Source: Eledone cirrhosa | Taxonomy: Eukaryota | Assembly: GCA_964016885.1 (NCBI GenBank) | Contig: OZ024740.1 | Coordinates: 413,354,001 to 413,418,000 of the forward strand | Reading direction: 5' to 3' | Length of the DNA stretch: 64,000 nt | Part shown: in pieces, positions 2,716 to 64,000 of the stretch | Position numbering within the stretch: position 1 is the first letter of the stretch | Layout of the letters: each line of letters begins with the position of its first letter | Notes under the pieces: generated by a model | What the model was told of the DNA's origin: nothing | Seen by the model: only the letters and a program-made list of their open reading frames with translations | Databases searched by the model: none | Made by a program: the position numbers and the translations under genes

Positions 2716-3165
2716 AATATATACATATATATTTATATATATATATATAGTAATAATAGTAATAATAATAAAATTGAAGACTAAAATCCAAAGAGGGCTC
2801 GATAAGGATAAATATATATCAAATATATAAGAACCGTAGACTACGACTTCTGCTATACCATTTACGTGGTTTTGATTTTGCGTGCTATTGTTCTCCACGC
2901 TCCACATATGACATATTATCTTCGTTTTTTCGTTCATTGCCAGAGAACGTCTCTATGCACCACCTAAGAGAACATTAGTCTACGACCTCTTTTATACCAT
3001 AAACGTGGTTCTGTCTTTGCGCGTAATTGTTTTTCACCGCTCCTATTAATGACGTATTATTCGTTTTTTCCCGTTCTTTGCCAGCGAACGTTTCGACGAA
3101 CCAAAGTATCGTCTTCCTGTCTTCCTCCGGTTGCAACATTTTTTGAAATATCCACTTCTGCGTTT

Positions 3166-3241
3166 ACAGATTGACTTTGTTAGTTTCAGAAGATCCCGTT
3201 AAGGGTGAAAGCAGTGATTCTTTGCTTAAACTTTAATCTGT
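3166..3241 (+). ncRNA. Type I hammerhead ribozyme fold, non-canonical CAGAAGA core
   Basis: Stem I AGTTT/AAACT extended by ACAGATTGA/TTAATCTGT; core CAGAAGA; stem II CCC/GGG; GAAA; stem III GCA/TGC; CUU site; AATAAA follows. Confidence 0.7.
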
Positions 3242-3274
3242 TATTTAATAAATATTTGCTCTACGGTGCATTTG

Positions 3275-3884
3275 CTCTACGAAACATTTTCCCCCTACAC
3301 ATAAATATAGTAAAATTTTTAATAGAAATACTATTAAGATTTCTTACTCTACGACTCCTAACCTTGCACATAACATCACAGCTTCAAATTTAGCTAAACT
3401 ACCTAGCCGTAGGAACACGTGCAACCCTGTAGTTAGTGCTAACTGTAATTGTAGGAATCGGGCTGATTGCCCCCTATCCGAGAAATGCCTCTCTAGTAAC
3501 ATTGTCTACAAATGTAAGGTTGTAACACCCACGTCCCGTAGGGCCTACATAGGGTTAACCGCCAATAGTTTCAAGCAGCGTCTTTACATGCATACCCATT
3601 CTTTTCGTTACCCTCTAAGAAGGAATATGACGTCACTTTCAGCTTATATCTGGAGTCTAAAAGACAACCACACCCAATATAAGTTACACTGGGAGATCCT
3701 AGCTAGGGCTAGATCGTATAACGGAAATAAAAGACCATGTGACCTCTGCGCCGCTGAGGCCCTGGAAATACTCTATGCCACAGACCACATCTTAAACAAA
3801 AAATCTGAGGCAATTTCGGCTTGTAAACATAAATTGCACAAAACTTTCCTGTATTACAGCCCAACGTTATACCCTAACGGATAG
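3275..3884 (+). pseudogene. PLE ORF C-terminus: linker plus GIY-YIG endonuclease
   Basis: ISYSTTPNL...CNCRNRADCPLSEKCLSSNIVYKCKV...AYIGLTANSFKQR...WEILARARSY...CDLCAAE...LNKKSE...CKH; open from ~3345 and in frame with ORF 3588-3884, frameshifted upstream. Confidence 0.9.
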
Positions 3885-4802
3885 TACGATCTATACGTGG
3901 ATATTTTACGTCTTGATGTGGTAGCTAAGTATATGTTTTGTTTATTCCTTTACTTATTTGCATAGGTAAGTATATATTACCCGTATGTTTTGTGAAGGTA
4001 TGTATACCTTCTCGTACGTATATTTGATTGTTATGGCGTATAATTTTTATATATTCTGGTATTTAGGGCTTGGCTATGTGTATACGGGAGTTTTGCCTCT
4101 GCGTGAGTATGCAGGTTCGTACGTATGGTGGGTGTGTGTATATGTGTACTTCTTGTTTTAGTTGACTTACGTCTCCGAACATTCGTGTATTTATATGTAG
4201 GTATGTGTGTGCGCTTGTTATATACGTATTTATTTACTTATATACGTTTATATAATTATTTATTTATTTCTACACAAGCATACACACACACACATATTTA
4301 CATGTGCGTGGTTTTGTATACCTATGGTAAAGTTTTGGGTATGCTTGTGTATGTACGTATTTGTTTGCGTGTGCGTATTTATTTATTTCTATTACTTCTG
4401 TATTGTATTTATTTACTTTGTTCTTAACTCTGTAGCGGAGATTCATTTGGTCTCCTAGTTAGAATTTTAGTCTACGACTTCTGCTATACCATTTACGTGG
4501 TTTTGTTTTTGCGTGCTATTGTTCTCTACGCCCCACATATGACTTATTATCTTCGTTTTCTCGTTCATTGCCAGAGAACGAGAACGTCTTTATGCACCAC
4601 CTAAGAGAACATTAGTCTACGACCTCTTTTATACCATAAACGTGGTTCTGTCTTTGCGCGTAATTGTTTTTCACCGCTCCTATTAATGACGTATTATTCG
4701 TTTTTTCCCGTTCTTTGCCAGCGAACGTTACTACGAACCAAAGTATCGTCTTCCTGTCTTCCTCCGGTTGCAACGTTTTTTGAAATATCCACTTCTGCGT
4801 TT

Positions 4803-4878
4803 ACAGATTGACTTTGTTAGTTTCAGAAGATCCCGTTAAGGGTGAAAGCAGCGATTCTTTGCTTAAACTTTAATCTGT
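4803..4878 (+). ncRNA. Type I hammerhead fold, CAGAAGA core (second pLTR)
   Basis: Near-identical to 3166-3241. Confidence 0.7.
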
Positions 4879-4904
4879 TATTTAATAAATATATATATAT
4901 ATAT

Positions 4905-5557
<653 letters not shown>

Positions 5558-8229
5558 TGAGTATGTGTGTGGGGGGGGGGCATATATAGAGAGAGAGAGA
5601 AAGAGAGAGAGAGAGTGGTATCAAACGTTGTAAAAGATAACATTTGAAAACAGCCGTGTTTGGTGTTTTGTTATTACAGATTGTATTTTATGAGAAATGA
5701 TATTCAATTAGTTGCTGACTGAGTGCCAGTACTTACAGTGTACTGGTCCCATTTTTCTGTGTTCAAATTCCAGCTGGAATTGTTTTAAAGTTTCTTCACT
5801 CTTGAATACATAAATTTCATATCAGCAATATCACCTTCGATTGAATTGTTTAAACAACTAACCTAGAACGTTGTATCTATGGCAAAATTCAGTATTACCT
5901 TATGTTGTCCACTATCTTTGTGTAGTGTATGTATACGTGTGTGACTGTATGTGTGTGTTATTGTATATGTGTTGTTCCTATGAGTGTGTTTAAAGTTGAG
6001 AATGCGTATTTAAGGATGTGTATGCGGTGAATGATCTATATTAAGATGTAAATTGACACTTTGTCAACAACTCATGATATTTGATATTCTTTGATATTTC
6101 ACAAAGCGTTGGTGCCCAGCATGGATGGAGTCTAATATAAAAGAGTAGAAGAATGTATATATAATATATATTAAAACACGTAGGAAGATCCCATTCACCA
6201 TATTATTTCTAGGCAATTTGTAGCTGTGGGTATTTATACGTATGTGAGCATTTGTGATTGTATATATACGTGGCATACAGAAGGAGGTAAAGTTTCAGCC
6301 AATTTGAAGCCTATACATGCCACATATGCTGCCAGTGTGGTATCTTTCTATGTTTCACATAATTGCAGTAATTGCTTAGAGAAAAACTGAAATCTTAAAG
6401 TTGTATACTTTTCGCCATGCATATCCTTCATCACTGAAGGAATGAAATCGGATATGAAGTCTCAGTTTCCATTAGATTTAAGCTCTATAAATTCCTTTCT
6501 ATTATGCAGTGTCAATATGAGGCATTACTTTTAAAATATAGTAAAATTGCTGCGGAAGAGTTGTCTCTATCAAGAAGCCATGCTAACATTTTACAGATGC
6601 GAATTTAAGGTTTACTTCGATAGAGTGTAGTAGCATACAAATGATGTTATGAATACCAAAATGTCAGAGACGCTGAGATATTATTTTAGCTTCAAAACAA
6701 TATTTATGATTTAAGTAATACTTTTAATTTCCTACGATATAAAGTTAGATTTATATGAAATAAAAGAGTTATTTCATACATCTCATTCCTAAAATTCTGT
6801 CGTCTAATAAATATAATGTATACAAAACTATTTACGTGGTGACTTTTAGATTTGATGGAGTAACAAAAGAACCTTAGGAAGTTCACATATATGAACCCCA
6901 GAGGCGACAAATAAAGAAATGAATTTACTAGTGATTCGGCAACTGGTAAAGAAATATAGTGTTAGAGATTCCAATGAATAAATAGTATAGCTTGATTATA
7001 TTTCAGATTCGTTCTTTATTTCCGCTGTACAAACTCCAAATCTACTTCTTTAATATGTATAAAGACTAAGATAATTTCTACTTCACGCTTTACATTTTGG
7101 AAATTTATCACATTTTTCGATATATCCAAGAACATACAAAAGCTAATCTACACTGGTTGAATTGACAGAGAACATGGTTACATGATATGTACGTTTTGTT
7201 CGTTCCATAATATATTAAATAAATATACGGCGTTATTGATAAACAGAACTGCTAATCAAATGTTTATTACAAGAGCAACGTATTTCGCCCGGAAGTCATT
7301 CCTCTTCTTCTCTATAATGACTAAATATATAAAACGGAATTCCTTATATAGCTTTTATTCGAGATCTCATAAAAGTCATTGAAGAAAAGTGCAGCAGATC
7401 ACATTAAATGATGCAGATATAAGACGAAAAACGAGTGTATGAATTATTAAATACGGAAGGAGGTAAAGACGATGTTTTCATAAATGGGTAAGTAAATGTT
7501 TTCTACCAATGACATCAAGAAATATTAATTTAGGAATGAAAAGCAGCCTCGAATTCTAGATCTATTAATGTAAACATGAAATGAAGCGCCTGTATTAATT
7601 ATCTACCAGCATACTTTTCTTTGAAAGGGCGTAAATTTATTGAAAATGTAGACTGATATCCTAATTGTATTTAGTAGTTTCCCCAAATATTTGACGTTCG
7701 ATTCCTGCTAATTTCGACAGTTCATTTACTTGTGACGTAGGTAAAAGCACTGTAGTAGTTGTGAATTTTAAAAATATATTAGAAATCTAGTTGCATGGAG
7801 TTGCACCAAGTGCCTTTGGATGTTTTGATTTCCATGGAGTTTAGCGATGGAATCCTCTGTTTCTCTGCTTATGCAGATTATGTATGTATGGACTTGTAAC
7901 TCCTGAGTGTATCGTAGGAGCAGCATCGTGAGATACGGGATGAGCAGTTTACGACGAGAGCCCATCTGCTCTAGGTTTGTACTCAGTCGATTTTTTTCTT
8001 CGATAATATGAAAGGCAAAGTAAATAAATGTGGCATTGAACATAGAAGGAAAAGATTCACAACAAATATCGTCAAGCATTCTATCCAACGATCAAATGAT
8101 TGGTAAATCACCGACTCTAAGCAAATATCTTCTATTTTCTAAAAGCGACACTATCCATTACACAACAATTAGACGATTGAAGTAATTTGTCAAGATAAGT
8201 AAACCGATGGAGCCGGTGGAATAAAATAA

Positions 8230-16184: not shown

Positions 16185-16240
16185 ACTGCTATATATATTT
16201 CGATGATTGCCATAGAATGGCTATGACCTCATCAGGCAGT
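16185..16240 (-). ncRNA. Type I hammerhead ribozyme in the 3' pLTR
   Basis: ACTGC-CTGATGA-long stem II-GAAA-TATATA-TA-GCAGT, followed by AATAAA. Confidence 0.88.
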
Positions 16241-21057: not shown

Positions 21058-21826
21058 TATATTTATTAAAATAACAGATTAAACTTTAAGCAAAGAATCG
21101 CTGCTTTCACCCTTAACGGGATCTTCTGAAACTAACAAAGTCAATCTGTAAACACAGAACTGGATATTTCAAAAAACGTTGCTACCGGAGGAAGACAGGA
21201 AGACGATACTTTGGTTCGTGGTAACGTTCGCTGGCAAAGAACGGGAAAAAACGAATAATACGTCATTAATAGGAGCGGTGAAAAACAATTACGCGCAAAG
21301 ACAGAACCACGTTTATGGTATAAAAGAGGTCGTAGACTAATGTTCTCTTAGGTGGTGCATAGAGACGTTCTCTGGCAATGAACGAAAAAAACGAAGATAA
21401 TAAGTCATATGTGGAGCGGGGAGAACAATAGCACGCAAAGACAAAATCACGTAAATGGTAAGCAGAAGTCGTAGACTAAAATTCTAACTAGGAGACCAAA
21501 TGAATCTCCGCTACAGAGTTAAGAACAAAGTAAATAAATACAATACAGAAGTAATAGAAACAAATAAATACATACACGCAAACAGATACGTACATACACA
21601 AGCATACGCAAAACCTTACCATAGCTATACAAAACCAGGCACATATAAATATGTGTGTGTGTGTATGCTTGTGTACAAATAAATAAATAATTATATAAAC
21701 GTATAGATCGTGCTTAAACTTTAATCTGTTATTTTAATAAATATTTGCTCTACGGTTCTTATATATTTGATATATATTTCCCTTATCGAGCCCTCTTTGG
21801 ATTTTAGTCTTCAATTTTATTATTAT

Positions 21827-27709: not shown

Positions 27710-27723
27710 TTTTAATATAGATG

Positions 27724-27774
27724 AGATTCTACAGGACTAGAACTGTTTCATTCTTTAGAAATCATCAGGAATCT
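27724..27774 (-). ncRNA. Type I hammerhead ribozyme in a ~140-bp insert within (TA)n
   Basis: AGATTC-CTGATGA-tTTCtaaaGAAt-GAAA-CAG ttctagtc CTG-TA-GAATCT; GUA site. Confidence 0.8.
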
Positions 27775-27850
27775 GGGTATCAAAAAATAAGTATGGTATT
27801 ATAGGTCTCTTCAAGTGGTAGGAGAGGATGGGGTGTGGGATGGGTGTCGG

Positions 27851-31334: not shown

Positions 31335-31550
31335 AGAGTAATCTGTGAACGCAGAAGTAAATATTTCGAGAAACGTTCCAACCGAGCGAAAACGGGAAGA
31401 CGATATTTTGGTTTGTGAATACGTTCCCTGGCAATGTACGGATAAAAAAGCGAGGATAATACGTCGTTATGTAGAGCGGAAGAAGAACAATTTAATGCAA
31501 AGACAAGACCAAATTTATGGAATAAATGGAGTCGTTAGACTAATATTCTA
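31335..31550 (-). mobile_element. Diverged copy of the 2.8-4.9 kb pLTR family
   Basis: Aligns by eye to 21140-21345. Confidence 0.6.
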
Positions 31551-31754
31551 TTTAAAATAACAGAATCATTTCCAGCCCCGGAGTTTAAGAATGATGTAAA
31601 TAAAATTGAAAACGAAAATGACAGAGGTTTTTAAATAGTAAAGTAAATAGTGAAGATTTAGGCCAGTACATACGTATGCCCCGACGGACATACACATACA
31701 TACGCACACACAAATACACCCCCCCCCACACACACACACACACGAGCGCGCGCG

Positions 31755-37490: not shown

Positions 37491-37496
<6 letters not shown>

Positions 37497-37648
37497 TAAT
37501 AAATTTGAAGACTAAAATCCAAAGAGGGCTCGATAAGGATAAATATATATCAAATATATAAGAACCATAGAGCAAATATTTATTAAAATAACAGATTAAA
37601 GTTTAAGCAAAAAATCGCTGCTTTCACCCTTAACGGGATCTTCTGAAA

Positions 37649-37652
<4 letters not shown>
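37491..37652 (-). mobile_element. pLTR end fragment of the 2.8-4.9 kb family with CAGAAGA HHR (37591-37650)
   Basis: Direct similarity; bounded by (TA)n. Confidence 0.8.
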
Positions 37653-43519: not shown

Positions 43520-43583
<64 letters not shown>

Positions 43584-43589
<6 letters not shown>

Positions 43590-43890
43590 TAATACAATAA
43601 CAGAGAAAGCCGTAAGCTAAACTCCGACTGGTAACCATCTCACTCAACAAACATTAGGATATACGTTAGTATAATCCCAATTTTGTGTTTGGGGTGCTAA
43701 CTATATGTATTTTGTGGAAAGCCAGTTGCATTATTTTATATGAGATATAATTAAAATTAAAATATATCTCTCTTTCCAAACAATTGTTTCATTATAAGTT
43801 TTCTACAAGTTGGGAGAATTTTTCCAGTTTATGTAGAAGCCTTACATATTTTCCTGTAAGAATATATGTAGGTGGGCACTTATAAATCAT
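43584..43890 (+). repeat. ~305-bp segment duplicated at 44830-45136, directly upstream of U2
   Basis: Near-identical direct repeat. Confidence 0.9.
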
Positions 43891-43934
43891 CAGTGGATGC
43901 CCATTAAACTTTGATATAAGAAAACATTTCTTAC

Positions 43935-43959
43935 CGCAGTTATTTTTCGTGTCCGCCAT
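43935..43959 (-). CDS. Candidate first coding exon of a host gene (MADTKNNC...)
   Basis: gacATGGCGGAC...TGCG followed by donor GTAAGA, just downstream of a CpG-rich patch; no downstream exon identified. Confidence 0.35.
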
Positions 43960-44075
43960 GTCATCCCTTCACGCATCGAATGACCGCCAAATTTGAAATT
44001 CCAGCAGTCTTTAGACTGAGGAAATATCATAGCGTCACGAAGCGGAAAAGGGAGACAATCGCGAGTCACGAGAAA
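43960..44075 (-). promoter_or_regulatory. CpG-rich candidate promoter/5' UTR
   Basis: Local CpG cluster with GCGGAA (ETS-like), TCGCGA and CGTCACG motifs in AT-rich surroundings. Confidence 0.3.
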
Positions 44076-44088
44076 AGTAAAATAATAT

Positions 44089-44839
44089 ACACGTGGGTTA
44101 ATTAGTTTTTTCAAAAACATTATCAATCCTGCGTGTTAAGAACTCAATTAATTTTTAAAAAATAAATGTATGCATGTATTAATTACACACGCATATAGAT
44201 ATTTTCTTAGGCTAAACACAGAGAAGTGATACCTAAATAAAAAACCAATATCTCATAACAGTAATAAATACGGAAAGTTACGTTTAAAAGGCATCTGGAA
44301 ATATAAATCTCTGGCCAAATTAAGAGTAAAATATTTAATACACGTGGGTTAATTAGTTTTTTCAAAACCATTATCAATCCTGTGTGTTAAGAACTCAATT
44401 AATTTTTAAAAAATAAATGTATGCATGTATTATTTACACAAGCATATAGATATTTTCTTAGGCTAAAAACAGAGAAGTGATACCTAAATAACAAACAATA
44501 TCTCATAACAGTAATACATACGGAAAGTTACGTTTAAAAGGCATCTGGAAATATAAATCTCTGGCCAAATTGAGAGTAAAATATTTAATACACGTGGGTT
44601 AATTAGTTTTTTCAAAACCATTATCGATCCTGCGTGTTAAGAACTCAATTAATTTAAAAAAAATAAATGTATGCATGTATTATTTACACACGCATATAGA
44701 TATTTTCTTAGGCTAAAAACAGAGAAGTGATACCTAAATAACAAACAATATCTCATAACAGTAATAAATACGGAAAGTTACGTTTATAAGGCATCTGGAA
44801 ATATAAATCTCTGGCCAAATCAAGAGTAAAATATTTAAT
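44089..44839. repeat. Three tandem copies of a ~250-bp unit
   Basis: ACACGTGGGTTAATTAG at 44089, 44340 and 44590. Confidence 0.93.
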
Positions 44840-45154
44840 ACAATAACAGAGAAAGCTTTAAGCTAAACTCCGACTGGTAACCATCTCACTCAACAAACAT
44901 TAGGATATACGTTAGTATAATCCGAATTTTGTGTTTGGGGTGCTAACTATATGTATTTTGTGGAAAGCCAGTTGTATTATTTTATATGAGATATAATTAA
45001 AATTAAAATATATCTTTCTTTCCAAACAATTGTTTCATTATTTGCTTTCTACAAGTTGAGAGAATGTTTCCAGTTTATGTAGAAGCCTAACATATTTTCC
45101 TGTAAGAATATATGTAGGTGGGCACTTATAAATCATCTTATAAATCACTTATAA

Positions 45155-45341
45155 ATCACTTCTCGGCCGTTTGGCTAAGATCAAAGTGTAGCATCTGTTC
45201 TTATCAGCTTAATATCTGATATGGTCCCTATATGGGACCATCGATATTAAACTGATTTTTAGAACTTGGCGAAGAGTTAGGGGCTTGCACCGCCTTTGCC
45301 ACGTTGGCCTGGTATTGCAGTATATCCAGGATTAGTCCCAT
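45155..45341 (+). ncRNA. U2: U2 snRNA, full-length variant or pseudogene
   Basis: ATCaCTTCTCGGCCgTTTGGCTAAGATCAAAGTGTAGcATCTGTTCTTATCAGCTTAATATCTGATA; stem IIb TGGTCCC/GGGACCA; Sm-like ATTTTTAG; SLIV CCTGG-TATTGCAGTATAT-CCAGG. Confidence 0.93.
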
Positions 45342-45345
45342 CTAT

Positions 45346-45387
<42 letters not shown>

Positions 45388-45674
45388 AAATAACGAAACG
45401 AAATTACATTTCGTTTCGTTTGTAACTCACTTTTGTATGACTGACGCTTAAACAATTAAGTTAAAAATGTACATCCACATATGTATACTGAAATACTAGT
45501 ATGCATATGAATACACACACGTATACATATGTAGATGTACCAAGTTTTTCACTGGTCACTTTACTGTGAGTGTCCAGCTATTCTGTATGTAAACACACAG
45601 ACAAACCGGTTTTTAGAGTCATACTGGTTTTTGAGGAAACACCTTTCCTCTATTCTCCAGAAAGCCAGACAAGG

Positions 45675-45719
45675 AATATTGAACTAGTTTCGTTGTTGTT
45701 ACAACTCATCAGCAATATT
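45675..45719 (-). ncRNA. Minimal type I hammerhead ribozyme
   Basis: Reverse complement of 46053-46097. Confidence 0.88.
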
Positions 45720-46052
45720 TACCTATTTTCCGGCCTTTCTGGAGAATCGTAAAAGCACATATCGTTATATGCTTTTTCTATGAAAATTAGTAGTGGGCAG
45801 ACTAATTTGCATAGAGTGTGAGTACGTACCGGTTCAACGGAGACGATAAAAACAAATAACGAAAAGAAATTACATTTCGTTTCGTTTGTAACTCACATAT
45901 AATTTCGTTTCGTTATTTGTTTTTATCGTCTCCGTTGAACCGGTACGTACTCACACTCTATGCAAATTAGTCTGCCCACTACTAATTTTCATAGAAAAAG
46001 CATATAACGATATGTGCTTTTACGATTCTCCAGAAAGGCCGGAAGATAGGTA

Positions 46053-46097
46053 AATATTGCTGATGAGTTGTAACAACAACGAAACTAGTTCAATATT
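46053..46097 (+). ncRNA. Minimal type I hammerhead ribozyme
   Basis: AATATTG-CTGATGA-GTTGT aaca ACAAC-GAAA-CTAG-TT-CAATATT. Confidence 0.88.
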
Positions 46098-46345
46098 CCT
46101 TGTCTGGCTTTCTGGAGAATAGAGGAAAGGTGTTTCTTCAAAAACCAGTATGACTCTAAAAACCGGTTTGTCTGTGTGTTTACATACAGAATAGCTGGAC
46201 ACTCACAGTAAAGTGACCAGTGAAAAACTTGGTACATCTACATATGTATACGTGTGTGTATTCATATGCATACTAGTATTTCAGTATACATATGTGGATG
46301 TACATTTTTAACTTAATTATATATATATATATATATATATTATTA

Positions 46346-46918: not shown

Positions 46919-46929
46919 AATATATATAT

Positions 46930-47222
46930 AGTAATAATAAATGTGAAGACTAAAGTCCGAAGAGGGCTCGATAACGATTAAATATATATAAACTTGTAGA
47001 TCAAATATTTAATATAAGAACAGATTAAAATTTCAGCAATGAATCGGTGCTTTCATCATTAAAGGGATCTTCTGAAACTAAAAAAAAGCAATCTGTGGAC
47101 GAGGAAGTAAATGTTTTCAAAAAATATTTACATCTGCGTCCACAGATTGATTTATTTTTAGTTTCCGAAGATCACATTAACGGTAAAAGCAGCGATTTTT
47201 GCTTCAACTTTTATCTGTTCTT
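46930..47222. mobile_element. Diverged fold-back of the CAGAAGA-HHR pLTR family
   Basis: Minus copy ~47020-47097 and plus copy ~47142-47218 of the 3166-3241 motif. Confidence 0.7.
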
Positions 47223-47723
47223 ATAATATATATATGTAGGTGTGTGTGTGTTAGTGTGTGTGTGTGTGAGTGTGTGTGTGTATGTGCGTGTGTGTGTGTG
47301 TGTGTGTGCAAAAAGCCACTTTTCTAAAGCATTGTCAGTAGAATGAGCCCCTCGTTTTTACTCTTGTGTTGGCATCTAAACAGAACTGTAGAGACCAATG
47401 TTTCTGGGCATCCCCCTTCATCAGTGCAATTCACTGTTCACCTGCCAACTGCCAGAGCTAGTGAAAATATATATTTTCAAAAATATACATTTTCAAAAAT
47501 ATACAGTGACTGATCGGCCTGATTTGCATATTAGTAGACTGATTTGCATTTTAGAAGATCCACTGGTCAGCCAAATTTGCATATCAGCAGATAGGCCAGT
47601 CACTTTCTTGGATACGAGCGATTAATATACGGGTATAATTCCAAACGAATCGAATATTATTAATATTCGAATAACTCAGATTACATTTATTGTATTCAGC
47701 CATGTAGAGCGGCAACTTTTTGT

Positions 47724-49835: not shown

Positions 49836-50147
49836 ACTAAAGAAATGTTAGCCTGATAATGGTGTTTAGAACCCTCAGATAAATAAAAAAAAAAGATGAG
49901 TATTGACGTACATGGCAGTCGAGTCCACATTTTGGTTATCCAGACCACAGTGCTACCATTACACCAACACATCATGTGTTGGTGTAATGGTAGCACAGTG
50001 GTCTGGATAACCATGTGTTGGTGTAATTGTAGCACAGTGGTCTGAAGAACCAAAGATGTGGGTTCGACTCCCATGTACGTCAATACTCATCTTTTTTCAT
50101 TTATCTGAGGGTTTTAAACCCCATTATCAGGTTAAAATTTCTTTAGT
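49836..50147. mobile_element. Head-to-head pair of tRNA-like elements (49904-49973 minus; 50013-50082 plus) with a 39-bp head duplication
   Basis: Cloverleaf-like: A-box TGGTGTAATGGTAGCAC, B-box GGTTCGACTCC, acceptor GATGTGT/GTACGTC, oligo-T downstream; anticodon loop differs between copies. Confidence 0.7.
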
Positions 50148-51169: not shown

Positions 51170-51477
51170 CATTATTTATTGCTTTACTAAAAGTGATAGT
51201 TGGAAATTAAAGTAAAAGAATCACGTGAACAACAGAAGATTTTTGAGACCTGTAATATTGCTAGAAATCAGTAAATGATATACACTATAACCTAGAATAT
51301 TCCGCTGTAACTAAATCCTAATTTCAGCTAGGGGGATTTGATATATCTTTAACATATTTCATTAACGGTACATCAAAAGTCTAATTCCATATATTAATGT
51401 CGCACAAAGTAATTGTATTAGTAAATAAATATGGTTTTTTTTCGGTAACAGATGGAAACAACCTCAGAGAGTTTTCT

Positions 51478-54400
51478 GTCATGCTCTTATAATATAAGTA
51501 AGTGAAACAACTTCAGTCTTACTCTATATTATCAGTAAGTTACACAACTTCATTCTTACTCTTGTAATATAAGTAAGTGAAACAACTTCAGTCTTACGCT
51601 ATATTATCTGAAAGTGATACAACTTCAGTCTTACTCTATAATATCAGTAAGTGAAACAACTTCAGTATTACTCTATATTATCAGTAAGTGAAACAACTTC
51701 AGTCTTACTCTATAATATCAGTAAGTGAAATAACTTCAGTATTACTCTCTAATATCAGTAAGTGACACAACTTCAGTCTTACTCTATATTATCAGTAAGT
51801 GAAACAGCTTCAGTGTTAATATATAATATCAGTAAGTGAAACAATTTCAGTCTTACTCTTATAATATCAGTAAGTGAAACAACTTCAGTCTTAATATATA
51901 TTATCAGTAAGTGAAACTACTTCAGTCTTACTCTATATTATCAGTAAGTGAAACAAATTCAGTCTTATTCTATAATATCAATAAGTGGAACAACTTGAGT
52001 CTTACTCTATATTATCAGTAAGTGAAACAACTTCAGTCTTACTCTATATTATCAGTAAGTGAAACAAATTCAGTCTTACTCTATAATATCAGTAAGTGGA
52101 ACAACTTCAGTCTTACTCTATAATATCAGTAAGTTAAACAACTTCAGTCTTACTCTATAATAACAGTAAGTGAAACAACTTCAGTCTTACTCTATAATAT
52201 CAGTAAGTGAAACAACTTCAGTCTTACTCTATATTATCAGTAAGTGAAACAACTTCAGTTTTACTCTATATTATCAGTAAGTGAAACAACTTCAGTCTTA
52301 CTCTATATTATCAGTAAGTGAAACAAATTCAGTCTTACTCTATAATATCAGTAAGTGAAACAACTTCAGTCTTACTCTATAATAACAGTAAGTGAAACAA
52401 CTTCATGTTTACTCTATACTATCAGTGAGTGAAACAACTTCAGTCTTACTCTATAATATCAGTAAGTGAAACAACTTCAGTCTTACTCTATAATATCAGT
52501 AAGTGAAACAACTTCAGTCTTACTCTATAATATCAGTAAGTGAAACAACTTCAGTCTTACTCTATAATATCAGTAAGTGATACAATTTCAGTCTTACTCT
52601 ATAATAACAGTAAGTGAAACAACTTCATGTTTACTCTATAATATCAGTAAGTGAAACAACTTCAGTCTTACTCTATAATATCAGTAAGTGAAACAACTTC
52701 AGTTTTACTCTATAATATCAGTAAGTGAAATAACTTCAGTCTTACTCTATAATATCAGTGAGTGAACCAACTTCATGTTTACTCTATAATATCAGTAAGT
52801 GAAACAACTTCAGTTTTACTCTATAATATCAGTAAGTGAAATAACTTCAGTCTTACTCTATAATATCAGTAAGTGAACCAACTTCATGTTTACTCTATAA
52901 TATCAGTAAGTGAAATAACTTCAGTCTTACTCTATAATATCAGTGAGTGAAACAACTTCAGTCTTACTCAATATTATCAGTAAGTGAAACAACTTCAGTC
53001 TTACTCAATATTATCAGTACGTGTAACAACTTCAGTCTTACTTTATATTATCAGTAAGTGAAACAACTTCAGTGTTACTCTATATTATCAGTAAGTGAAA
53101 CGACTTCCGTCTTACTCTATATTATCAGTAAGTGAAACAACTTCAGTGTTACTCTTATATTATCAGTAAGTGAAACAACTTCAGTGTTACTCTATATTAT
53201 CAGTAAGTGAAACAACTTCAGTGTTACTCTATATTATCAGTAAGTGAAACAACTTCAGACTTACTCTATATTATCAGTAAGTGAAACAACTTCAGTCTTA
53301 CTCTGTAATATCAGTAAGTAAAACAGCATCAGTGTTACTCTATATTTGTTTCTACTTTTAGGCACAAGGCCAGCAATAACCCAGTACATTACTGGTACTT
53401 TATTTTATCGACCCCGTAAGAATGAAAGGCAAAGTCAACCCCGGCGGGACTTGAACTCCACCGTAAAGGGACGTAACAAAGCTGGAAAGCATGGCGTCCG
53501 ATCTTCTAACGATACTGCCAATCCACCACCTACCGATACTGCCAATCCACCGCCTTGTTACTCTATATTATCAGTAAGTCATACAACTTCAGTCTCACTC
53601 TATATTATCAGTAAGTGAAACAACTTCAGTCTTACTCTATATTATCAGTAAGTGAAACAACTTCAGTCTTACTCTATATTATCAGTAAGTGAAACAACTT
53701 CAGTGTTACTCTTATATTATCAGTAAGTGAAACAACTTCAGTGTTACTCTTATATTATCAGTAAGTGAAACAACTTCAGTCTTAGTCTATATTATCAGTA
53801 AGTGAAACAACTTCAGTCTTACTCTATATTATCAGTAAGTGAAACAACTTCAGTGTTACTCTTATATTATCAGTAAGTGAAACAACTTCAGTCTTAGTCT
53901 ATATTATCAGTAGGTGAAACAACTTCAGTGTTACTCTTATATTATCAGTAAGTGAAACAACTGCAGTCTTAGTCTATATTATCAGTAGGTGAAACAACTT
54001 CAGTCTTACTCTATAATATCAGTAAGTGAAACAACTTCTGTCGTACTCTATAATATCAGTAAGTGAAACAACTTCAGTCTTACTCTATATTATCAGTAAG
54101 AGAAACAACTTCAGTGTTATTCTATTTCATCAGTAAGTGAAACAACATCAGTGTTACTCTATATTATCAGTAAGTGAAACAACTTCAGTCTTACTCTATT
54201 TTATCAGTAAGTCAAACAACTTCAGTCTTACTCTATAATAACAGTAAGTGAAACAACTTCATGTTTACTCTATACTATCAGTGAGTGAAACAACTTCAGT
54301 CTTACTCTATAATATCAGTAAGTGAAACAACTTCAGTCTTACTCTATAATATCAGTAAGTGAAACAACTTCAGTCTTACTCTATAATATCAGTAAGTGAA

Positions 54401-57400
54401 ACAACTTCAGTCTTACTCTATAATATCAGTAAGTGATACAATTTCAGTCTTACTCTATAATAACAGTAAGTGAAACAACTTCATGTTTACTCTATAATAT
54501 CAGTAAGTGAAACAACTTCAGTCTTACTCTATAATATCAGTAAGTGAAACAACTTCAGTTTTACTCTATAATATCAGTAAGTGAAATAACTTCAGTCTTA
54601 CTCTATAATATCAGTGAGTGAACCAACTTCATGTTTACTCTATAATATCAGTAAGTGAAACAACTTCAGTTTTACTCTATAATATCAGTAAGTGAAATAA
54701 CTTCAGTCTTACTCTATAATATCAGTAAGTGAACCAACTTCATGTTTACTCTATAATATCAGTAAGTGAAATAACTTCAGTCTTACTCTATAATATCAGT
54801 GAGTGAAACAACTTCAGTCTTACTCAATATTATCAGTAAGTGAAACAACTTCAGTCTTACTCAATATTATCAGTACGTGTAACAACTTCAGTCTTACTTT
54901 ATATTATCAGTAAGTGAAACAACTTCAGTGTTACTCTATATTATCAGTAAGTGAAACGACTTCCGTCTTACTCTATATTATCAGTAAGTGAAACAACTTC
55001 AGTGTTACTCTTATATTATCAGTAAGTGAAACAACTTCAGTGTTACTCTATATTATCAGTAAGTGAAACAACTTCAGACTTACTCTATATTATCAGTAAG
55101 TGAAACAACTTCAGTCTTACTCTGTAATATCAGTAAGTAAAACAGCATCAGTGTTACTCTATATTTGTTTCTACTTTTAGGCACAAGGCCAGCAATAACC
55201 CAGTACATTACTGGTACTTTATTTTATCGACCCCGTAAGAATGAAAGGCAAAGTCAACCTCGGCGGGACTTGAACTCCACCGTAAAGGGACGTAACAAAG
55301 CTGGAAAGCATGGCGTCCGATCTTCTAACGATACTGCCAATCCACCACCTACCGATACTGCCAATCCACCGCCTTGTTACTCTATATTATCAGTAAGTCA
55401 TACAACTTCAGTCTCACTCTATATTATCAGTAAGTGAAACAACTTCAGTCTTACTCTATATTATCAGTAAGTGAAACAACTTCAGTCTTACTCTATATTA
55501 TCAGTAAGTGAAACAACTTCAGTGTTACTCTTATATTATCAGTAAGTGAAACAACTTCAGTGTTACTCTTATATTATCAGTAAGTGAAACAACTTCAGTC
55601 TTAGTCTATATTATCAGTAAGTGAAACAACTTCAGTCTTACTCTATATTATCAGTAAGTGAAACAACTTCAGTGTTACTCTTATATTATCAGTAAGTGAA
55701 ACAACTTCAGTCTTAGTCTATATTATCAGTAGGTGAAACAACTTCAGTGTTACTCTTATATTATCAGTAAGTGAAACAACTGCAGTCTTAGTCTATATTA
55801 TCAGTAGGTGAAACAACTTCAGTCTTACTCTATAATATCAGTAAGTGAAACAACTTCTGTCGTACTCTATAATATCAGTAAGTGAAACAACTTCAGTCTT
55901 ACTCTATATTATCAGTAAGAGAAACAACTTCAGTGTTATTCTATTTCATCAGTAAGTGAAACAACATCAGTGTTACTCTATATTATCAGTAAGTGAAACA
56001 ACTTCAGTCTTACTCTATTTTATCAGTAAGTCAAACAACTTCAGTCTTACTCTATAATAACAGTAAGTGAAACAACTTCATGTTTACTCTATACTATCAG
56101 TGAGTGAAACAACTTCAGTCTTACTCTATAATATCAGTAAGTGAAACAACTTCAGTCTTACTCTATAATATCAGTAAGTGAAACAACTTCAGTCTTACTC
56201 TATAATATCAGTAAGTGAAACAACTTCAGTCTTACTCTATAATATCAGTAAGTGATACAATTTCAGTCTTACTCTATAATAACAGTAAGTGAAACAACTT
56301 CATGTTTACTCTATAATATCAGTAAGTGAAACAACTTCAGTCTTACTCTATAATATCAGTAAGTGAAACAACTTCAGTTTTACTCTATAATATCAGTAAG
56401 TGAAATAACTTCAGTCTTACTCTATAATATCAGTGAGTGAACCAACTTCATGTTTACTCTATAATATCAGTAAGTGAAACAACTTCAGTTTTACTCTATA
56501 ATATCAGTAAGTGAAATAACTTCAGTCTTACTCTATAATATCAGTAAGTGAACCAACTTCATGTTTACTCTATAATATCAGTAAGTGAAATAACTTCAGT
56601 CTTACTCTATAATATCAGTGAGTGAAACAACTTCAGTCTTACTCAATATTATCAGTAAGTGAAACAACTTCAGTCTTACTCAATATTATCAGTACGTGTA
56701 ACAACTTCAGTCTTACTTTATATTATCAGTAAGTGAAACAACTTCAGTGTTACTCTATATTATCAGTAAGTGAAACGACTTCCGTCTTACTCTATATTAT
56801 CAGTAAGTGAAACAACTTCAGTGTTACTCTTATATTATCAGTAAGTGAAACAACTTCAGTGTTACTCTATATTATCAGTAAGTGAAACAACTTCAGACTT
56901 ACTCTATATTATCAGTAAGTGAAACAACTTCAGTCTTACTCTGTAATATCAGTAAGTAAAACAGCATCAGTGTTACTCTATATTTGTTTCTACTTTTAGG
57001 CACAAGGCCAGCAATAACCCAGTACATTACTGGTACTTTATTTTATCGACCCCGTAAGAATGAAAGGCAAAGTCAACCTCGGCGGGACTTGAACTCCACC
57101 GTAAAGGGACGTAACAAAGCTGGAAAGCATGGCGTCCGATCTTCTAACGATACTGCCAATCCACCACCTACCGATACTGCCAATCCACCGCCTTGTTACT
57201 CTATATTATCAGTAAGTCATACAACTTCAGTCTCACTCTATATTATCAGTAAGTGAAACAACTTCAGTCTTACTCTATATTATCAGTAAGTGAAACAACT
57301 TCAGTCTTACTCTATATTATCAGTAAGTGAAACAACTTCAGTGTTACTCTTATATTATCAGTAAGTGAAACAACTTCAGTGTTACTCTTATATTATCAGT

Positions 57401-60400
57401 AAGTGAAACAACTTCAGTCTTAGTCTATATTATCAGTAAGTGAAACAACTTCAGTCTTACTCTATATTATCAGTAAGTGAAACAACTTCAGTGTTACTCT
57501 TATATTATCAGTAAGTGAAACAACTTCAGTCTTAGTCTATATTATCAGTAGGTGAAACAACTTCAGTGTTACTCTTATATTATCAGTAAGTGAAACAACT
57601 GCAGTCTTAGTCTATATTATCAGTAGGTGAAACAACTTCAGTCTTACTCTATAATATCAGTAAGTGAAACAACTTCTGTCGTACTCTATAATATCAGTAA
57701 GTGAAACAACTTCAGTCTTACTCTATATTATCAGTAAGAGAAACAACTTCAGTGTTATTCTATTTCATCAGTAAGTGAAACAACATCAGTGTTACTCTAT
57801 ATTATCAGTAAGTGAAACAACTTCAGTCTTACTCTATTTTATCAGTAAGTCAAACAACTTCAGTCTTACTCTATAATAACAGTAAGTGAAACAACTTCAT
57901 GTTTACTCTATACTATCAGTGAGTGAAACAACTTCAGTCTTACTCTATAATATCAGTAAGTGAAACAACTTCAGTCTTACTCTATAATATCAGTAAGTGA
58001 AACAACTTCAGTCTTACTCTATAATATCAGTAAGTGAAACAACTTCAGTCTTACTCTATAATATCAGTAAGTGATACAATTTCAGTCTTACTCTATAATA
58101 ACAGTAAGTGAAACAACTTCATGTTTACTCTATAATATCAGTAAGTGAAACAACTTCAGTCTTACTCTATAATATCAGTAAGTGAAACAACTTCAGTTTT
58201 ACTCTATAATATCAGTAAGTGAAATAACTTCAGTCTTACTCTATAATATCAGTGAGTGAACCAACTTCATGTTTACTCTATAATATCAGTAAGTGAAACA
58301 ACTTCAGTTTTACTCTATAATATCAGTAAGTGAAATAACTTCAGTCTTACTCTATAATATCAGTAAGTGAACCAACTTCATGTTTACTCTATAATATCAG
58401 TAAGTGAAATAACTTCAGTCTTACTCTATAATATCAGTGAGTGAAACAACTTCAGTCTTACTCAATATTATCAGTAAGTGAAACAACTTCAGTCTTACTC
58501 AATATTATCAGTACGTGTAACAACTTCAGTCTTACTTTATATTATCAGTAAGTGAAACAACTTCAGTGTTACTCTATATTATCAGTAAGTGAAACGACTT
58601 CCGTCTTACTCTATATTATCAGTAAGTGAAACAACTTCAGTGTTACTCTTATATTATCAGTAAGTGAAACAACTTCAGTGTTACTCTATATTATCAGTAA
58701 GTGAAACAACTTCAGTGTTACTCTATATTATCAGTAAGTGAAACAACTTCAGACTTACTCTATATTATCAGTAAGTGAAACAACTTCAGTCTTACTCTGT
58801 AATATCAGTAAGTAAAACAGCATCAGTGTTACTCTATATTTGTTTCTACTTTTAGGCACAAGGCCAGCAATAACCCAGTACATTACTGGTACTTTATTTT
58901 ATCGACCCCGTAAGAATGAAAGGCAAAGTCAACCTCGGCGGGACTTGAACTCCACCGTAAAGGGACGTAACAAAGCTGGAAAGCATGGCGTCCGATCTTC
59001 TAACGATACTGCCAATCCACCACCTACCGATACTGCCAATCCACCGCCTTGTTACTCTATATTATCAGTAAGTCATACAACTTCAGTCTCACTCTATATT
59101 ATCAGTAAGTGAAACAACTTCAGTCTTACTCTATATTATCAGTAAGTGAAACAACTTCAGTCTTACTCTATATTATCAGTAAGTGAAACAACTTCAGTGT
59201 TACTCTTATATTATCAGTAAGTGAAACAACTTCAGTGTTACTCTTATATTATCAGTAAGTGAAACAACTTCAGTCTTAGTCTATATTATCAGTAAGTGAA
59301 ACAACTTCAGTCTTACTCTATATTATCAGTAAGTGAAACAACTTCAGTGTTACTCTTATATTATCAGTAAGTGAAACAACTTCAGTCTTAGTCTATATTA
59401 TCAGTAGGTGAAACAACTTCAGTGTTACTCTTATATTATCAGTAAGTGAAACAACTGCAGTCTTAGTCTATATTATCAGTAGGTGAAACAACTTCAGTCT
59501 TACTCTATAATATCAGTAAGTGAAACAACTTCTGTCGTACTCTATAATATCAGTAAGTGAAACAACTTCAGTCTTACTCTATATTATCAGTAAGAGAAAC
59601 AACTTCAGTGTTATTCTATTTCATCAGTAAGTGAAACAACATCAGTGTTACTCTATATTATCAGTAAGTGAAACAACTTCAGTCTTACTCTATTTTATCA
59701 GTAAGTCAAACAACTTCAGTCTTAATCTATATTATCAGGAAGTGAAACAATTTCAGTGTTACTCTATATTATCAGTAAGTGAAACAACTTCAGTCTTACT
59801 CTATAATATCTGTAAGTGAAACAACTTCAGTCTTACTCTATAATAACAGTAAGTGAAACAACTTCATGTTTACTCTATAATATCAGTGAGTGAAACAACT
59901 TCAGTCTTACTCTATAATATCAGTAAGTGAAACAACTTCAGTCTTACTCTATAATATCAGTAAGTGAAATAACTTCAGTCTTACTCTATAATATCAGTAA
60001 GTGAACCAACTTCATGTTTACTCTATAATATCAGTAAGTGAAACAACTTCAGTCTTACTCTATATTATCAGTAAGTGAAACAACTTCATGTTCACTCTAT
60101 AATATCAGTGAGTGAAACAACTTCAGTCTTACTCAATATTATCAGTAAGTGAAACAACTTCAGTCTTACTCAATATTATCAGTACGTGTAACAACTTCAG
60201 TCTTACTTTATATTATCAGTAAGTGAAACAACTTCAGTGTTACTCTATATTATCGGTAAGTGAAACGACTTCCGTCTTACTCTATATTATCAGTAAGTGA
60301 AACAACTTCAGTGTTACTCTTATATTATCAGTAAGTGAAACAACTTCAGTCTTACTCTATTTTATCAGTAAGTCAAACAACTTCAGTCTTAATCTATATT

Positions 60401-63400
60401 ATCAGGAAGTGAAACAATTTCAGTGTTACTCTATATTATCAGTAAGTGAAACAACTTCAGTCTTACTCTATAATATCTGTAAGTGAAACAACTTCAGTCT
60501 TACACTATATTATCAGTAAGTGAAACAACTTCAGTGTTACTCTTATATTATCAGTAAGTGAAACAATTTCAGTCTTACTCTATATTATCAGTAAGTGAAA
60601 CAACTTCAGTCTTACTTAATATTATCAGTAAGTGAAACAACTTTAGTCATACTCTATAATATCAGTAGGTGAAACAGCTTCAGTGTTACTCTATATTATC
60701 AGTAAGTGAAACAACTTCAGTCTTACTCTATATTATCATTAAGTGAAACAGCATCAGTCTTACTCTGTATTATCAGTAGGTGAAACAACTTCAGTCTTAC
60801 TCTATATTATCATTAAGTGAAACAACTTCAGTCTTACTCTATATTATCATTAAGTGAAACAACTTCAGTCTTACTTTATATTATCAGTAAGTGAAATAAC
60901 TTCAGCCTTACTCTATATAATTAGAAAGTGAAACAACTTCAGTCTTACTCTATGTTATCAGTAAGTGAAACAACTTCAGTGTTACTCTATATTATCAGTA
61001 AGTGAAACAAATTCAGTGTTACTCTATATTATCAGTAAGTGAAACGACTTCCGTCTTACTCTATATTATCAGTAAGTGAAACAACTTCAGTGTTACTCTT
61101 ATATTATCAGTAAGTGAAACAACTTGAGTGTTACTCTATATTATCAGTAAGTGAAACAACTTCAGACTTACTCTATATTATCAGTAAGTGAAACAACTTC
61201 AGTCTTACTCTGTAATATCAGTAAGTGAAACAGCATCAGTGTTACTCTATATTTGTTTCTACTTTTAGGCACAAGGCCAGCAATAACCCAGTACATTACT
61301 GGTACTATATTTTATCGACCCCGTAAGAATGAAAGGCAAAGTCAACCTCAGCCTTACTCTATATAATTAGAAAGTGAAACAACTTCAGTCTTACTCTATA
61401 TTATCAGTAAGTGAAACAACTTCAGTCTTACTCTATTTTATCAGTAAGTCAAACAACTTCAGTCTTAATCTATATTATCAGTAAGTGAAAAAACTTCAGT
61501 CTTACTCTATAATATCTGTAAGTGAAAAAACTTCAGTCTTACTCTATATTATCAGTAAGTGAAACAACTTCAGTGTTACTCTTATATTATCAGTAAGTGA
61601 AACAACTTCAGTCTTAGTCTATATTATCAGTAAGTGAAAAAACTTCAGTCTTACTCTATATTATCAGTAAGTGAAACAACTTCAGTGTTACTCTTATATT
61701 ATCAGTAAGTGAAACAACTTCAGTCTTAGTCTATATTATCAGTAGGTGAAACAACTTCAGTGTTACTCTTATATTATCAGTAAGTGAAACAACTGCAGTC
61801 TTAGTCTATATTATCAGTAGGTGAAACAACTTCAGTCTTACTCTATAATATCAGTAAGTGAAACAACTTCTGTCGTACTCTATAATATCAGTAAGTGAAA
61901 CAACTTCAGTCTTACTCTATATTATCAGTAAGAGAAACAACTTCAGTGTTATTCTATTTTATCAGTAAGTGAAACAACTTCAGTCTTACTCTATTTTATC
62001 AGTAAGTCAAACAACTTCAGTCTTACTCTATATTATCAGGAAGTGAAACAATTTCAGTGTTACTCTATAATATCAGTAAGTGAAACAACTTCAGTCTTAC
62101 TCTATAATATCTGTAAGTGAAACAACTTCAGTCTTACTCTATATTATCAGTAAGTGAAACAACTTCAGTGTTACTCTTATATTATCAGTAAGTGAAACAA
62201 TTTCAGTCTTACTCTATATTATCAGTAAGTGAAACAACTTCAGTCATACTCTATAATATCAGTAGGTGAAACAGCTTCAGTGTTACTCTATATTATCAGT
62301 AAGTGAAACAACTTCAGTCTTACTCTATGTTATCATTAAGTGAAACAGCATCAGTCTTACTCTGTATTATCAGTAGGTGAAACAACTTCAGTCTTACTCT
62401 ATATTATCATTAAGTGAAACAACTTCAGTCTTACTCTATATTATCATTAAGTGAAACAACTTCAGTCTTACTTTATATTATCAGTAAGTGAAACAACTTC
62501 AGCCTTACTCTATATAATTAGAAAGTGAAACAACTTCAGTCTTACTCTATTTTATCAGTAAGTGAAGCAACTTCAGTCTTACTCTATATTATCAGTAAGT
62601 GAAACAAATTCAGTCTTACTCTATAATATCAGTAAGTGAAACAACTTCAGTCTTACTCTATATTATCAGTAAGTGAAACAAATTCAGTCTTACTCTATAA
62701 TATCAGTAAGTGAAACAATTTCAGTCTTACTCTATAATAACAGTAAGTGAAACAACTTCATGTTTACTCTATAATATCAGTGAGTGAAACAATTTCAGTC
62801 TTACTCTATAATATCAGTAAGTGAAACAACTTCAGTCTTACTCTATAATATCAGTAAGTGATACAATTTCAGTCTTACTCTATAATAACAGTAAGTGAAA
62901 CAACTTCATGTTTACTCTATAATATCAGTAAGTGAAACAACTTCAGTCATACTCTATAATATCAGTAAGTGAAACAACTTCATTCTTACTCTATAATATC
63001 AGTAAGTGAAACAACTTCAGTCATACTCTATAATATCAGTAAGTGATACAACTTCAGTCTTACTCTATAATATCAGTAAGTGAAACAACTTCAGTCTCAC
63101 TCTATAATATCAGTAAGTGAAACAACTTCAGTCATACTCTATAATATCAGTAAGTCATACAACTTCAGTCTCACTCTATATTATCAGTAAGTGAAACAAC
63201 TTCAGTGTTACTCTATATTATCAGTAAGTGAAACAACTTCCGTCTTACTCCATAATATCAGTAACTGAAACAACTTCAGTCTTACTTTATATTATCAGTA
63301 AGTGAAACAACTTCAGTGTTACTCTATATTATCAGTAAGTGAAACAACTTCAGTCTTACTCTATATTATCAGTAAGTGAAACAACTTCAGTCTTACTCCG

Positions 63401-64000
63401 TATTATCAATAAGTGAAACAACTTCAGTCTTACTTTATATTATCAGTAAGTGAAACAACTTCAGTGTTACTCTATATTATCAGTAAGTGAAACAACTTCA
63501 GTCTTACTCTATATTATCAGTAAGTGAAACAACTTCAGTGTTACTCTATAATATCAGTAAGTGAAACGGCATCAGTGTTACATTATATTTGTTTCTACAT
63601 TTAGGCACAAGGCCAGCAATAACCCAGTACATTACTGGTACTATATTTTATCGACCCCGTAAGAATGAAAGGCAAAGTCAACCTCGGTGGGACTTGAACT
63701 CCATCGTAAAGGGACGTAACAATGCTGGAAAGCTAGGCCTCTGATCCTCTAACGATACTGCCAATCCACCACCTACCGATACTGCCAATCCACCGCATTG
63801 TTACTCTATATTATCAGTAAGTCATACAACTTCAGTCTTACTCTATATTATCAGTAAGTGAAACAACTTTAGTCTTACTTAATATTATCACAAAGTGAAA
63901 CAACTTCAGTCTTACTCTATATTATCATTAAGTGAAACAGCATCAGTCTTACTCTGTATTATCAGTAAGTGAAACAACTTCAGTCTTACTCTATATTATC
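51478..64000. repeat. 37-bp satellite array (consensus ATCAGTAAGTGAAACAACTTCAGTCTTACTCTATATT) with ~1.82-kb higher-order repeat; runs off the window
   Basis: Monomer counted directly; identical ORFs recur at 53346, 55165, 56984 and 58840 (periods 1819, 1819, 1856). Confidence 0.97.
53347..53555 (-). mobile_element. Nin/Deu-family SINE in the satellite; amplified copies at 55166-55374, 56985-57193, 58841-59049, 61254-61349 (truncated) and 63590-63798
   Basis: Family match, 14-bp TSD TGTTACTCTATATT, shared 24-bp head duplication. Confidence 0.92.

Follow-up and report, generated by a model that had tools for sequence, protein, structure and literature searches.

A type I hammerhead motif with A at core position 4 in both pLTRs of a Penelope-like element: a conserved fold at a probable mRNA 5' end

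The closest described relatives of the motif analysed here are the hammerheads of Penelope-like elements (PLEs). As reported in the text of Cervera & De la Pena 2014 (PMC4209133), these are type I motifs residing in both pLTRs, they occur in thousands of mostly truncated copies and their expected activity is low, and the motif of the present report is alike in all these respects. Their function is treated as an open question in the passages of PMC8557442 and PMC11167929 that bear on it. In the anole PLE, unprocessed RNA was found to be the main template and cutting needs protein (PMC11167929). Among the natural core variants described by Perreault et al. 2011 (PMC3088659), the U10.1-U11.1 pair is a known tolerated variant and position 4 varies as a viroid U4C, which is slow yet viable; our motif shares the former and also departs from the consensus at position 4. 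The window, that is, the whole stretch of 64,000 nucleotides of Eledone cirrhosa DNA that was analysed, contains a long-form type I hammerhead in an upstream pLTR (3166..3241, forward strand) with A at core position 4, where U is normally fixed. Our reading, which we consider about evenly balanced between right and wrong, is that this A4 hammerhead, present in both pLTRs, is likely to make up the mRNA's capped 5' end, and that it is a slowed ribozyme, as predicted from its core, whose fold is still under selection.

The carrier is a Penelope-like element with RT and, C-terminally, a GIY-YIG endonuclease, and its hammerhead is present in both pLTRs (Table 1). A single ORF encodes RT and then GIY-YIG, with the YRDD, YIG and Cys/His motifs found, and the pLTRs, the tail, the inverted and truncated 5' ends and the microsatellite targets are hallmarks of PLEs; the identity as a PLE pLTR hammerhead, proposed in a first-pass annotation made from the letters of this DNA, was borne out. 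A Pfam search of the element protein returned no match, and one of 143 protein homologues is named GIY-YIG endonuclease (best identity 56%, others at most 45%). The Cys linker before GIY-YIG and the (TA)n targets would fit a Neptune-like element, as the Neptune clade is described with both features in PMC8557442. In a near-complete genomic unit, L521, the first hammerhead core lies at 1427, the ATG at 1624 (641 codons) and the second hammerhead at 4686; both hammerheads carry A4, and the ORF stop falls within the endonuclease. The order in the near-full unit is hammerhead, 5' UTR without upstream ATG, ORF, hammerhead, with a period of 3,259. The pLTR also has an internal duplication of ~130 bases with 77% identity (2837-3103 and 4461-4740), which precedes the probable start and may be a promoter repeat, and a relative of the upstream pLTR (~75%) at 31340-31604 (−) diverges just before the hammerhead, a junction that recurs in a contig of run X6.

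Table 1. Coordinates of the element, its hammerhead and related copies in the window
Feature	Positions	Strand	Remarks
Inverted tail (5' UTR start) at the 5' junction	2760..2840	−	adjoins (TA)n
Upstream pLTR and first tail bases	2837..3267	+	96% identical to 4468-4892
Distal stem I	3166-3174/3233-3241		
Probable start of transcription (+1), at the base opening proximal stem I	3182..3182	+	suggested by 5'-end hotspot with extra G
Proximal stem I	3182-3186/3228-3232		
Core positions 3-9	3187..3193	+	A4 at 3188, N7=A at 3191
Stem II region	3194..3206	+	U10.1-U11.1 mismatch, 3 C-G pairs, 5-nt loop with A last
Stem II C-G pairs	3195-3197/3203-3205		
G12-A15.1, stem III, 9-nt loop, C-U-U triplet	3207..3227	+	
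Stem III	3211-3213/3223-3225		
C-U-U triplet	3225-3227		predicted cut after 3227 (hammerhead consensus)
5'-truncated ORF: RT end, Cys linker, GIY-YIG endonuclease	3278..3884	+	
3' UTR and downstream pLTR	3885..4892	+	contains the second hammerhead (4803-4878) with A4 at 4825; terminates in (TA)n
Young 5'-truncated copy	21059..21705	−	A4 core 21122-21128
Comparison canonical-U4 family, same build	27710..27805	−	core 27762-27768, probable +1 27774
Short copy starting at ~+1 directly after (TA)n	37494..37652	−	A4
Old head-to-head pair	46928..47238	.	A4 copy (−) and C4/G12A copy (+, core 47165)

The window holds several other features. At least three further canonical hammerhead families lie in or beside other Penelope-like ORFs, at 16235, 20132, 40292 (−), 38159 (+), 45659-45730 (−) and 46042-46113 (+), the last two sitting in an 865-base inverted repeat. 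A U2 snRNA gene or pseudogene (45155-45345, +; 159 bits) adjoins repeated upstream blocks at 43581-45137, and an inverted repeat at 49836-50147 includes a tRNA-like match at 50012-50082. A tandem array occupies positions 51473-64000; its short unit measures ~37 bases and its higher-order period ~1.8 kb; a 190-base SINE-like repeat is found in this array and also at 8225, 26280, 28455, 32940, 33200, 34356 and 46346.

The type I stems and the C-U-U site were located in 3166-3241 as the first-pass annotation had described them. Three stems surround a junction that is open at stem I, and both strands of the stems are kept between subfamilies. C3, G5, A6, G8, A9, G12, A13, A14, the A15.1-U16.1 pair and H17 are all present, and loop II ending in A and the U-rich bulge of stem I are common to all subfamilies. 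Besides A4 there is a second deviation, the U10.1-U11.1 mismatch (3194/3206), which replaces a G-C pair and leaves this position without the usual purine-pyrimidine pair. The motif does not have the tiny or absent palindromic helix III and the long helix II of the minimal dimer-type PLE hammerhead. A loose pattern matched the window 7 times against 1.04 expected from shuffles, and the core CAGAAGA was confirmed in five copies, at 3187-3193 (+), 4824-4830 (+), 21122-21128 (−), 37639-37645 (−) and 47068-47074 (−). A sixth copy with C4 is present as claimed, but it gives no evidence for a C4 lineage because it is decayed and also carries G12A; the A4 copy at 47 kb is likewise decayed, with G17 and a broken stem II. 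The AATAAA noted downstream is also present, and copies either end there into (TA)n or run on into the tail, which is the start of the 5' UTR, so that these ends lend no support to a poly(A) function of AATAAA. Standard models overlook the motif, as had been expected: Rfam had no family matching it at E<=1, and in the same run two canonical motifs (45659-45730 and 46042-46113) matched HH9 below the gathering score. The folding energy is ordinary (z −0.24 to −1.57 in four copies), and in 2 of the 4 predicted structures the junction is not formed, the two strands of the core being paired together.

Position 4 was tabulated over the genome with an exact 35-base pattern in which this position was left as N. 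Among its 13,711 matches A was found in 13,593 (99.1%), in agreement with the suggestion that the variant was in the actively copying master element, and CTGAAGA was far from being the majority form. The first 100 of the 118 non-A copies comprise 39 G, 36 T and 25 C, which is a point-mutation spectrum, and in contigs from four public runs no letter other than A reached 1% at 3188. Runs labelled organisms B and C contain a few low-depth contigs with A4, too thin a basis for placing the family in further species. We also scanned 278 sequences (1.08 Mb, in which the A4 family is enriched) with a descriptor that leaves position 4 open, and obtained 234 distinct matches: 122 of the A4 family, 99 in 12 other multi-copy families and 13 singletons. 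All 99 copies of these 12 families from the same genome have U4, and therefore A4 is specific to the A4 lineage among the families sampled. The U10.1-U11.1 mismatch, on the other hand, also occurs in U4 families of this genome.

A U4 sister with the same stems was sought with a looser U4 pattern. It gave 122 matches, and nearly all of the 100 listed were revertants within A4 subfamilies, several apparent U4 copies being fold-back junctions; no U4 ancestor of the A4 lineage was found among the matches listed. Pattern matches in metagenomes (108) were taken as chance, since in none of those checked did stem II occur together with the 3' part of the motif. Families L009, L010, L059, L065 and L079 of this genome show the U3-A8 core covariation, which is already known. 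At position 3210 (A15.1), A>G reached 1.5% of depth in run X4 against ~0.15% in X1 and X2; the hammerhead-to-ORF depth ratio is much higher in X4, and RNA with editing is one possible, weakly indicated explanation from this one contig run.

Whether the fold has been maintained was judged from older subfamilies. Old copies were found by the 3' flank alone, without use of the core (90 of 138 examined); 35 of these 90 loci had a readable core, and the 32 not flagged as fold-back had A in 29, G in 2 and T in 1, the lone T4 copy lying in an inverted arm. Over 1,504 nt, one of the old copies shares ~74% identity with the young ORF. We compared column majorities between 30 young copies and 40 old ones that by visual inspection extended into the core, excluding nine positions fixed by the search. 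None of the 45 paired or core positions has a different majority, against 7 of the 22 unpaired positions (Fisher p=2e-4), while old copies deviate by ~9% from their own majority within the motif, and N7 and the length of loop II are variable among them. Because of this difference between paired or core and unpaired positions we infer that the fold stayed under selection after A4 arose, and it would have been kept while the lineage diverged by roughly 15% or more. Retention of A4 itself, in contrast, is expected by chance at the estimated old-young divergence. The first-pass annotation had proposed tabulating stem covariation; the stems proved to be conserved on both strands, but no compensatory pair was seen within the A4 lineage (old versus young subfamilies), in which the stems are invariant. 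The U4 family of the same build has other pairs, but it did not align to the A4 family.

The position of RNA 5' ends was suggested by the junctions of inserted copies. The 5' ends of old copies accumulate where proximal stem I begins, and many of them follow a G. Young copies with a non-T base before this position number 1,940 genome-wide, and in the first 100 of them this base is G in 54, A in 26 and C in 20 (G excess, p=3e-9). True junctions to unrelated or inverted DNA were seen in 28 of 30 loci, 22 of them with G, and in three loci the inverted arm also ends on the complement of the extra G. By an arithmetic estimate, ~1,800 copies have their 5' end precisely on the base that opens stem I, compared with ~180 per base near the cut site. 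In L1, an extra G at full-length 5' junctions is reported to reflect capping (PMC11702581). The canonical-U4 family of the same build has a TATA-like box ~30 bases upstream of its probable +1, and at least 2,096 of its copies start at G plus the first base of stem I (G in 79 of the first 100; junctions in 12 of 15 loci); an ORF of this family was not found. Since ~1,800 ends lie at stem I, mostly behind G, and the canonical family is alike, 3182 is probably +1 and the A4 hammerhead probably the capped 5' end of the mRNA, although the extra G could alternatively be an addition by RT at a structure-induced stop. Of six other families, three had too few copies and the remaining three were without a clear pile-up at the stem I start, so that a start at stem I is not universal.

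With this start, the hammerhead would be the first 51 bases of a 5' UTR of ~202-203 bases, which has no upstream ATG in L030, and short capped RNAs from solo pLTRs appear to have been copied in bulk. Copies starting at stem I span the cut site, indicating that their template was uncut or religated. As the canonical-U4 family has the same start pattern and has also spread from uncut RNA, U4A is unneeded for such spread. The location of the start also bears on an explanation that we regard as very unlikely, namely that A4 was selected for a role in the core promoter (at +7, in a second initiator-like C-A) or because it supplies the A of a splice acceptor, the ribozyme being a passenger. Position 4 does sit 6 bases past the probable start, A4 makes a C-A-G behind a T-rich run resembling a pyrimidine tract, and an intron end in D. 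virilis is mapped to the 5' end of helix I in PMC4209133. However, all stems are conserved on both strands while the loops vary, and spliced junctions were found neither among 30 loci nor in contig joints.

Ends left by cutting were looked for in the genomic copies. We estimated 381 copies (572 x 20/30) starting at −2..+1 of this site, against 378 (755 x 15/30) at upstream and 811 (1,106 x 22/30) at downstream control positions; a spike of copy starts is thus absent in the A4 family. This would fit a hammerhead that has lost catalysis but retains its three-way fold for a different task, for example RT binding or protection of the 5' UTR, a reading that we find possible but rather improbable. 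It is in line with a core that deviates from the optimum at three points (A4, U-U and C-U-U), and with the reports that PLE clades without hammerheads thrive (PMC8557442) and that dead-hammerhead mutants of the anole PLE still insert in vitro, the activity being dispensable there (PMC11167929). Yet the other catalytic bases are unchanged between subfamilies in 11 of 11 cases, although for these bases alone the comparison with the 7 of 22 unpaired positions gives p=0.07. In addition, the cut-end test cannot show the death of the ribozyme, because the canonical-U4 family, in which at most 89 copies start at the cut site against 2,096 at +1, is also without a spike and the test therefore has no positive control.

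Cleavage sites of the N-U-U type are slow. Published variants allow a rough estimate of what A4 itself may do. In systematic mutagenesis, mutants of the CUGA U-turn had low activity and were not rescued (PMC9901934). No U4 mutants were reported among 50 escape clones in PMC4075628, where U4 is described as the most tolerant of the conserved positions. Taken together with the slow viroid U4C and the tolerated U-U pair, these variants point to a slow rather than a zero activity of the A4 ribozyme, by analogy. A fully working core variant, in which tertiary contacts or an element protein would compensate for A4 and cutting would equal that of U4 families, seems to us distinctly unlikely. The core and stems have been conserved while the ORF diverged by ~25%, loop II closes with an A in 37 of 40 old copies and in all 30 young ones though the loop length changes, which fits a loop-bulge contact, and both the tolerance of U4 and the protein-assisted cutting of the anole PLE are compatible with it; the unrescued U-turn mutants and the U4 kept in 99 of 99 copies of the 12 other families speak against it.

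Between the natural active variant and the tuned-down ribozyme that the first-pass annotation had offered, we favour the latter, and the slowed, still selected hammerhead could act as follows. Transcription would begin at the first base of stem I (3182), ~202-203 bases before the ORF ATG, so the 5' hammerhead copy would be left with a 5-bp stem I and only the 3' copy would have the long stem. Cleavage of the 5' copy, at +46, would take the cap off the mRNA, whereas cleavage of the 3' copy would detach the ORF from the 3' ends at which copying starts. A reduced cutting rate, supplied by U4A together with the U-U pair and the C-U-U site, would leave more intact mRNA and template, and less cutting would cost little, perhaps even help, while the fold would still be required. 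A variation on this scheme, which we think unlikely, is that the hammerhead works with A4 and serves as a switch at the cap: in some PLEs transcription would start at the first hammerhead base, so that the 5' copy would lack the long stem I and stay off, and the element's protein could turn the 3' copy on, deciding between mRNA, template and circle.

The genome offers a natural comparison, since it contains a dozen U4 families as well as a U4A lineage that spread in several waves with its fold kept. Should the A4 motif cut, a new core has to be added to the hammerhead consensus and to search descriptors; should it fail to cut, the fold must be retained for some purpose besides cleavage. From DNA alone, the extra-G junctions indicate where transcription probably starts in two PLE families and place the ribozyme at the cap, and they suggest that the RNA copied in vivo is capped and uncut. 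A natural U4A was not found in the literature searched, whose figures and supplements may contain A4 examples, and in the same texts no PLE hammerhead was found to be described with a cap site on its first base. As far as these texts go, PLE hammerheads, U3-A8, U4C and U-U are already known and a natural U4A is apparently new.

Compared with the PLE hammerheads of PMC4209133, where U3-A8 is the only core change named in the text, our motif differs by A4, by the 3-bp helix II and by the U-U at 10.1/11.1, and in place of the minimal dimer type it has a true helix III, whose 9-nt loop is non-palindromic. The natural variants in the text of PMC3088659 are rare single cases that include no U4A, whereas here the variant is fixed in more than 13,000 copies and several subfamilies. 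The PAc Poseidon hammerhead (Frangieh et al. 2024, PMC11167929) is alike in its uncut template, the two 3' ends defining a tail and the AT-rich targets, but it is described with a canonical core overlapping the start codon, unlike our motif, which lies ~200 bases before the ATG at the probable cap site. In the D. virilis Penelope promoter, as described by Schostak et al. 2008 (PMC2377424), the start is likewise inside the pLTR with the ORF downstream; that start lies 46 bases before an intron ending at helix I, whereas here no intron was seen and the probable start is the first base of helix I itself.
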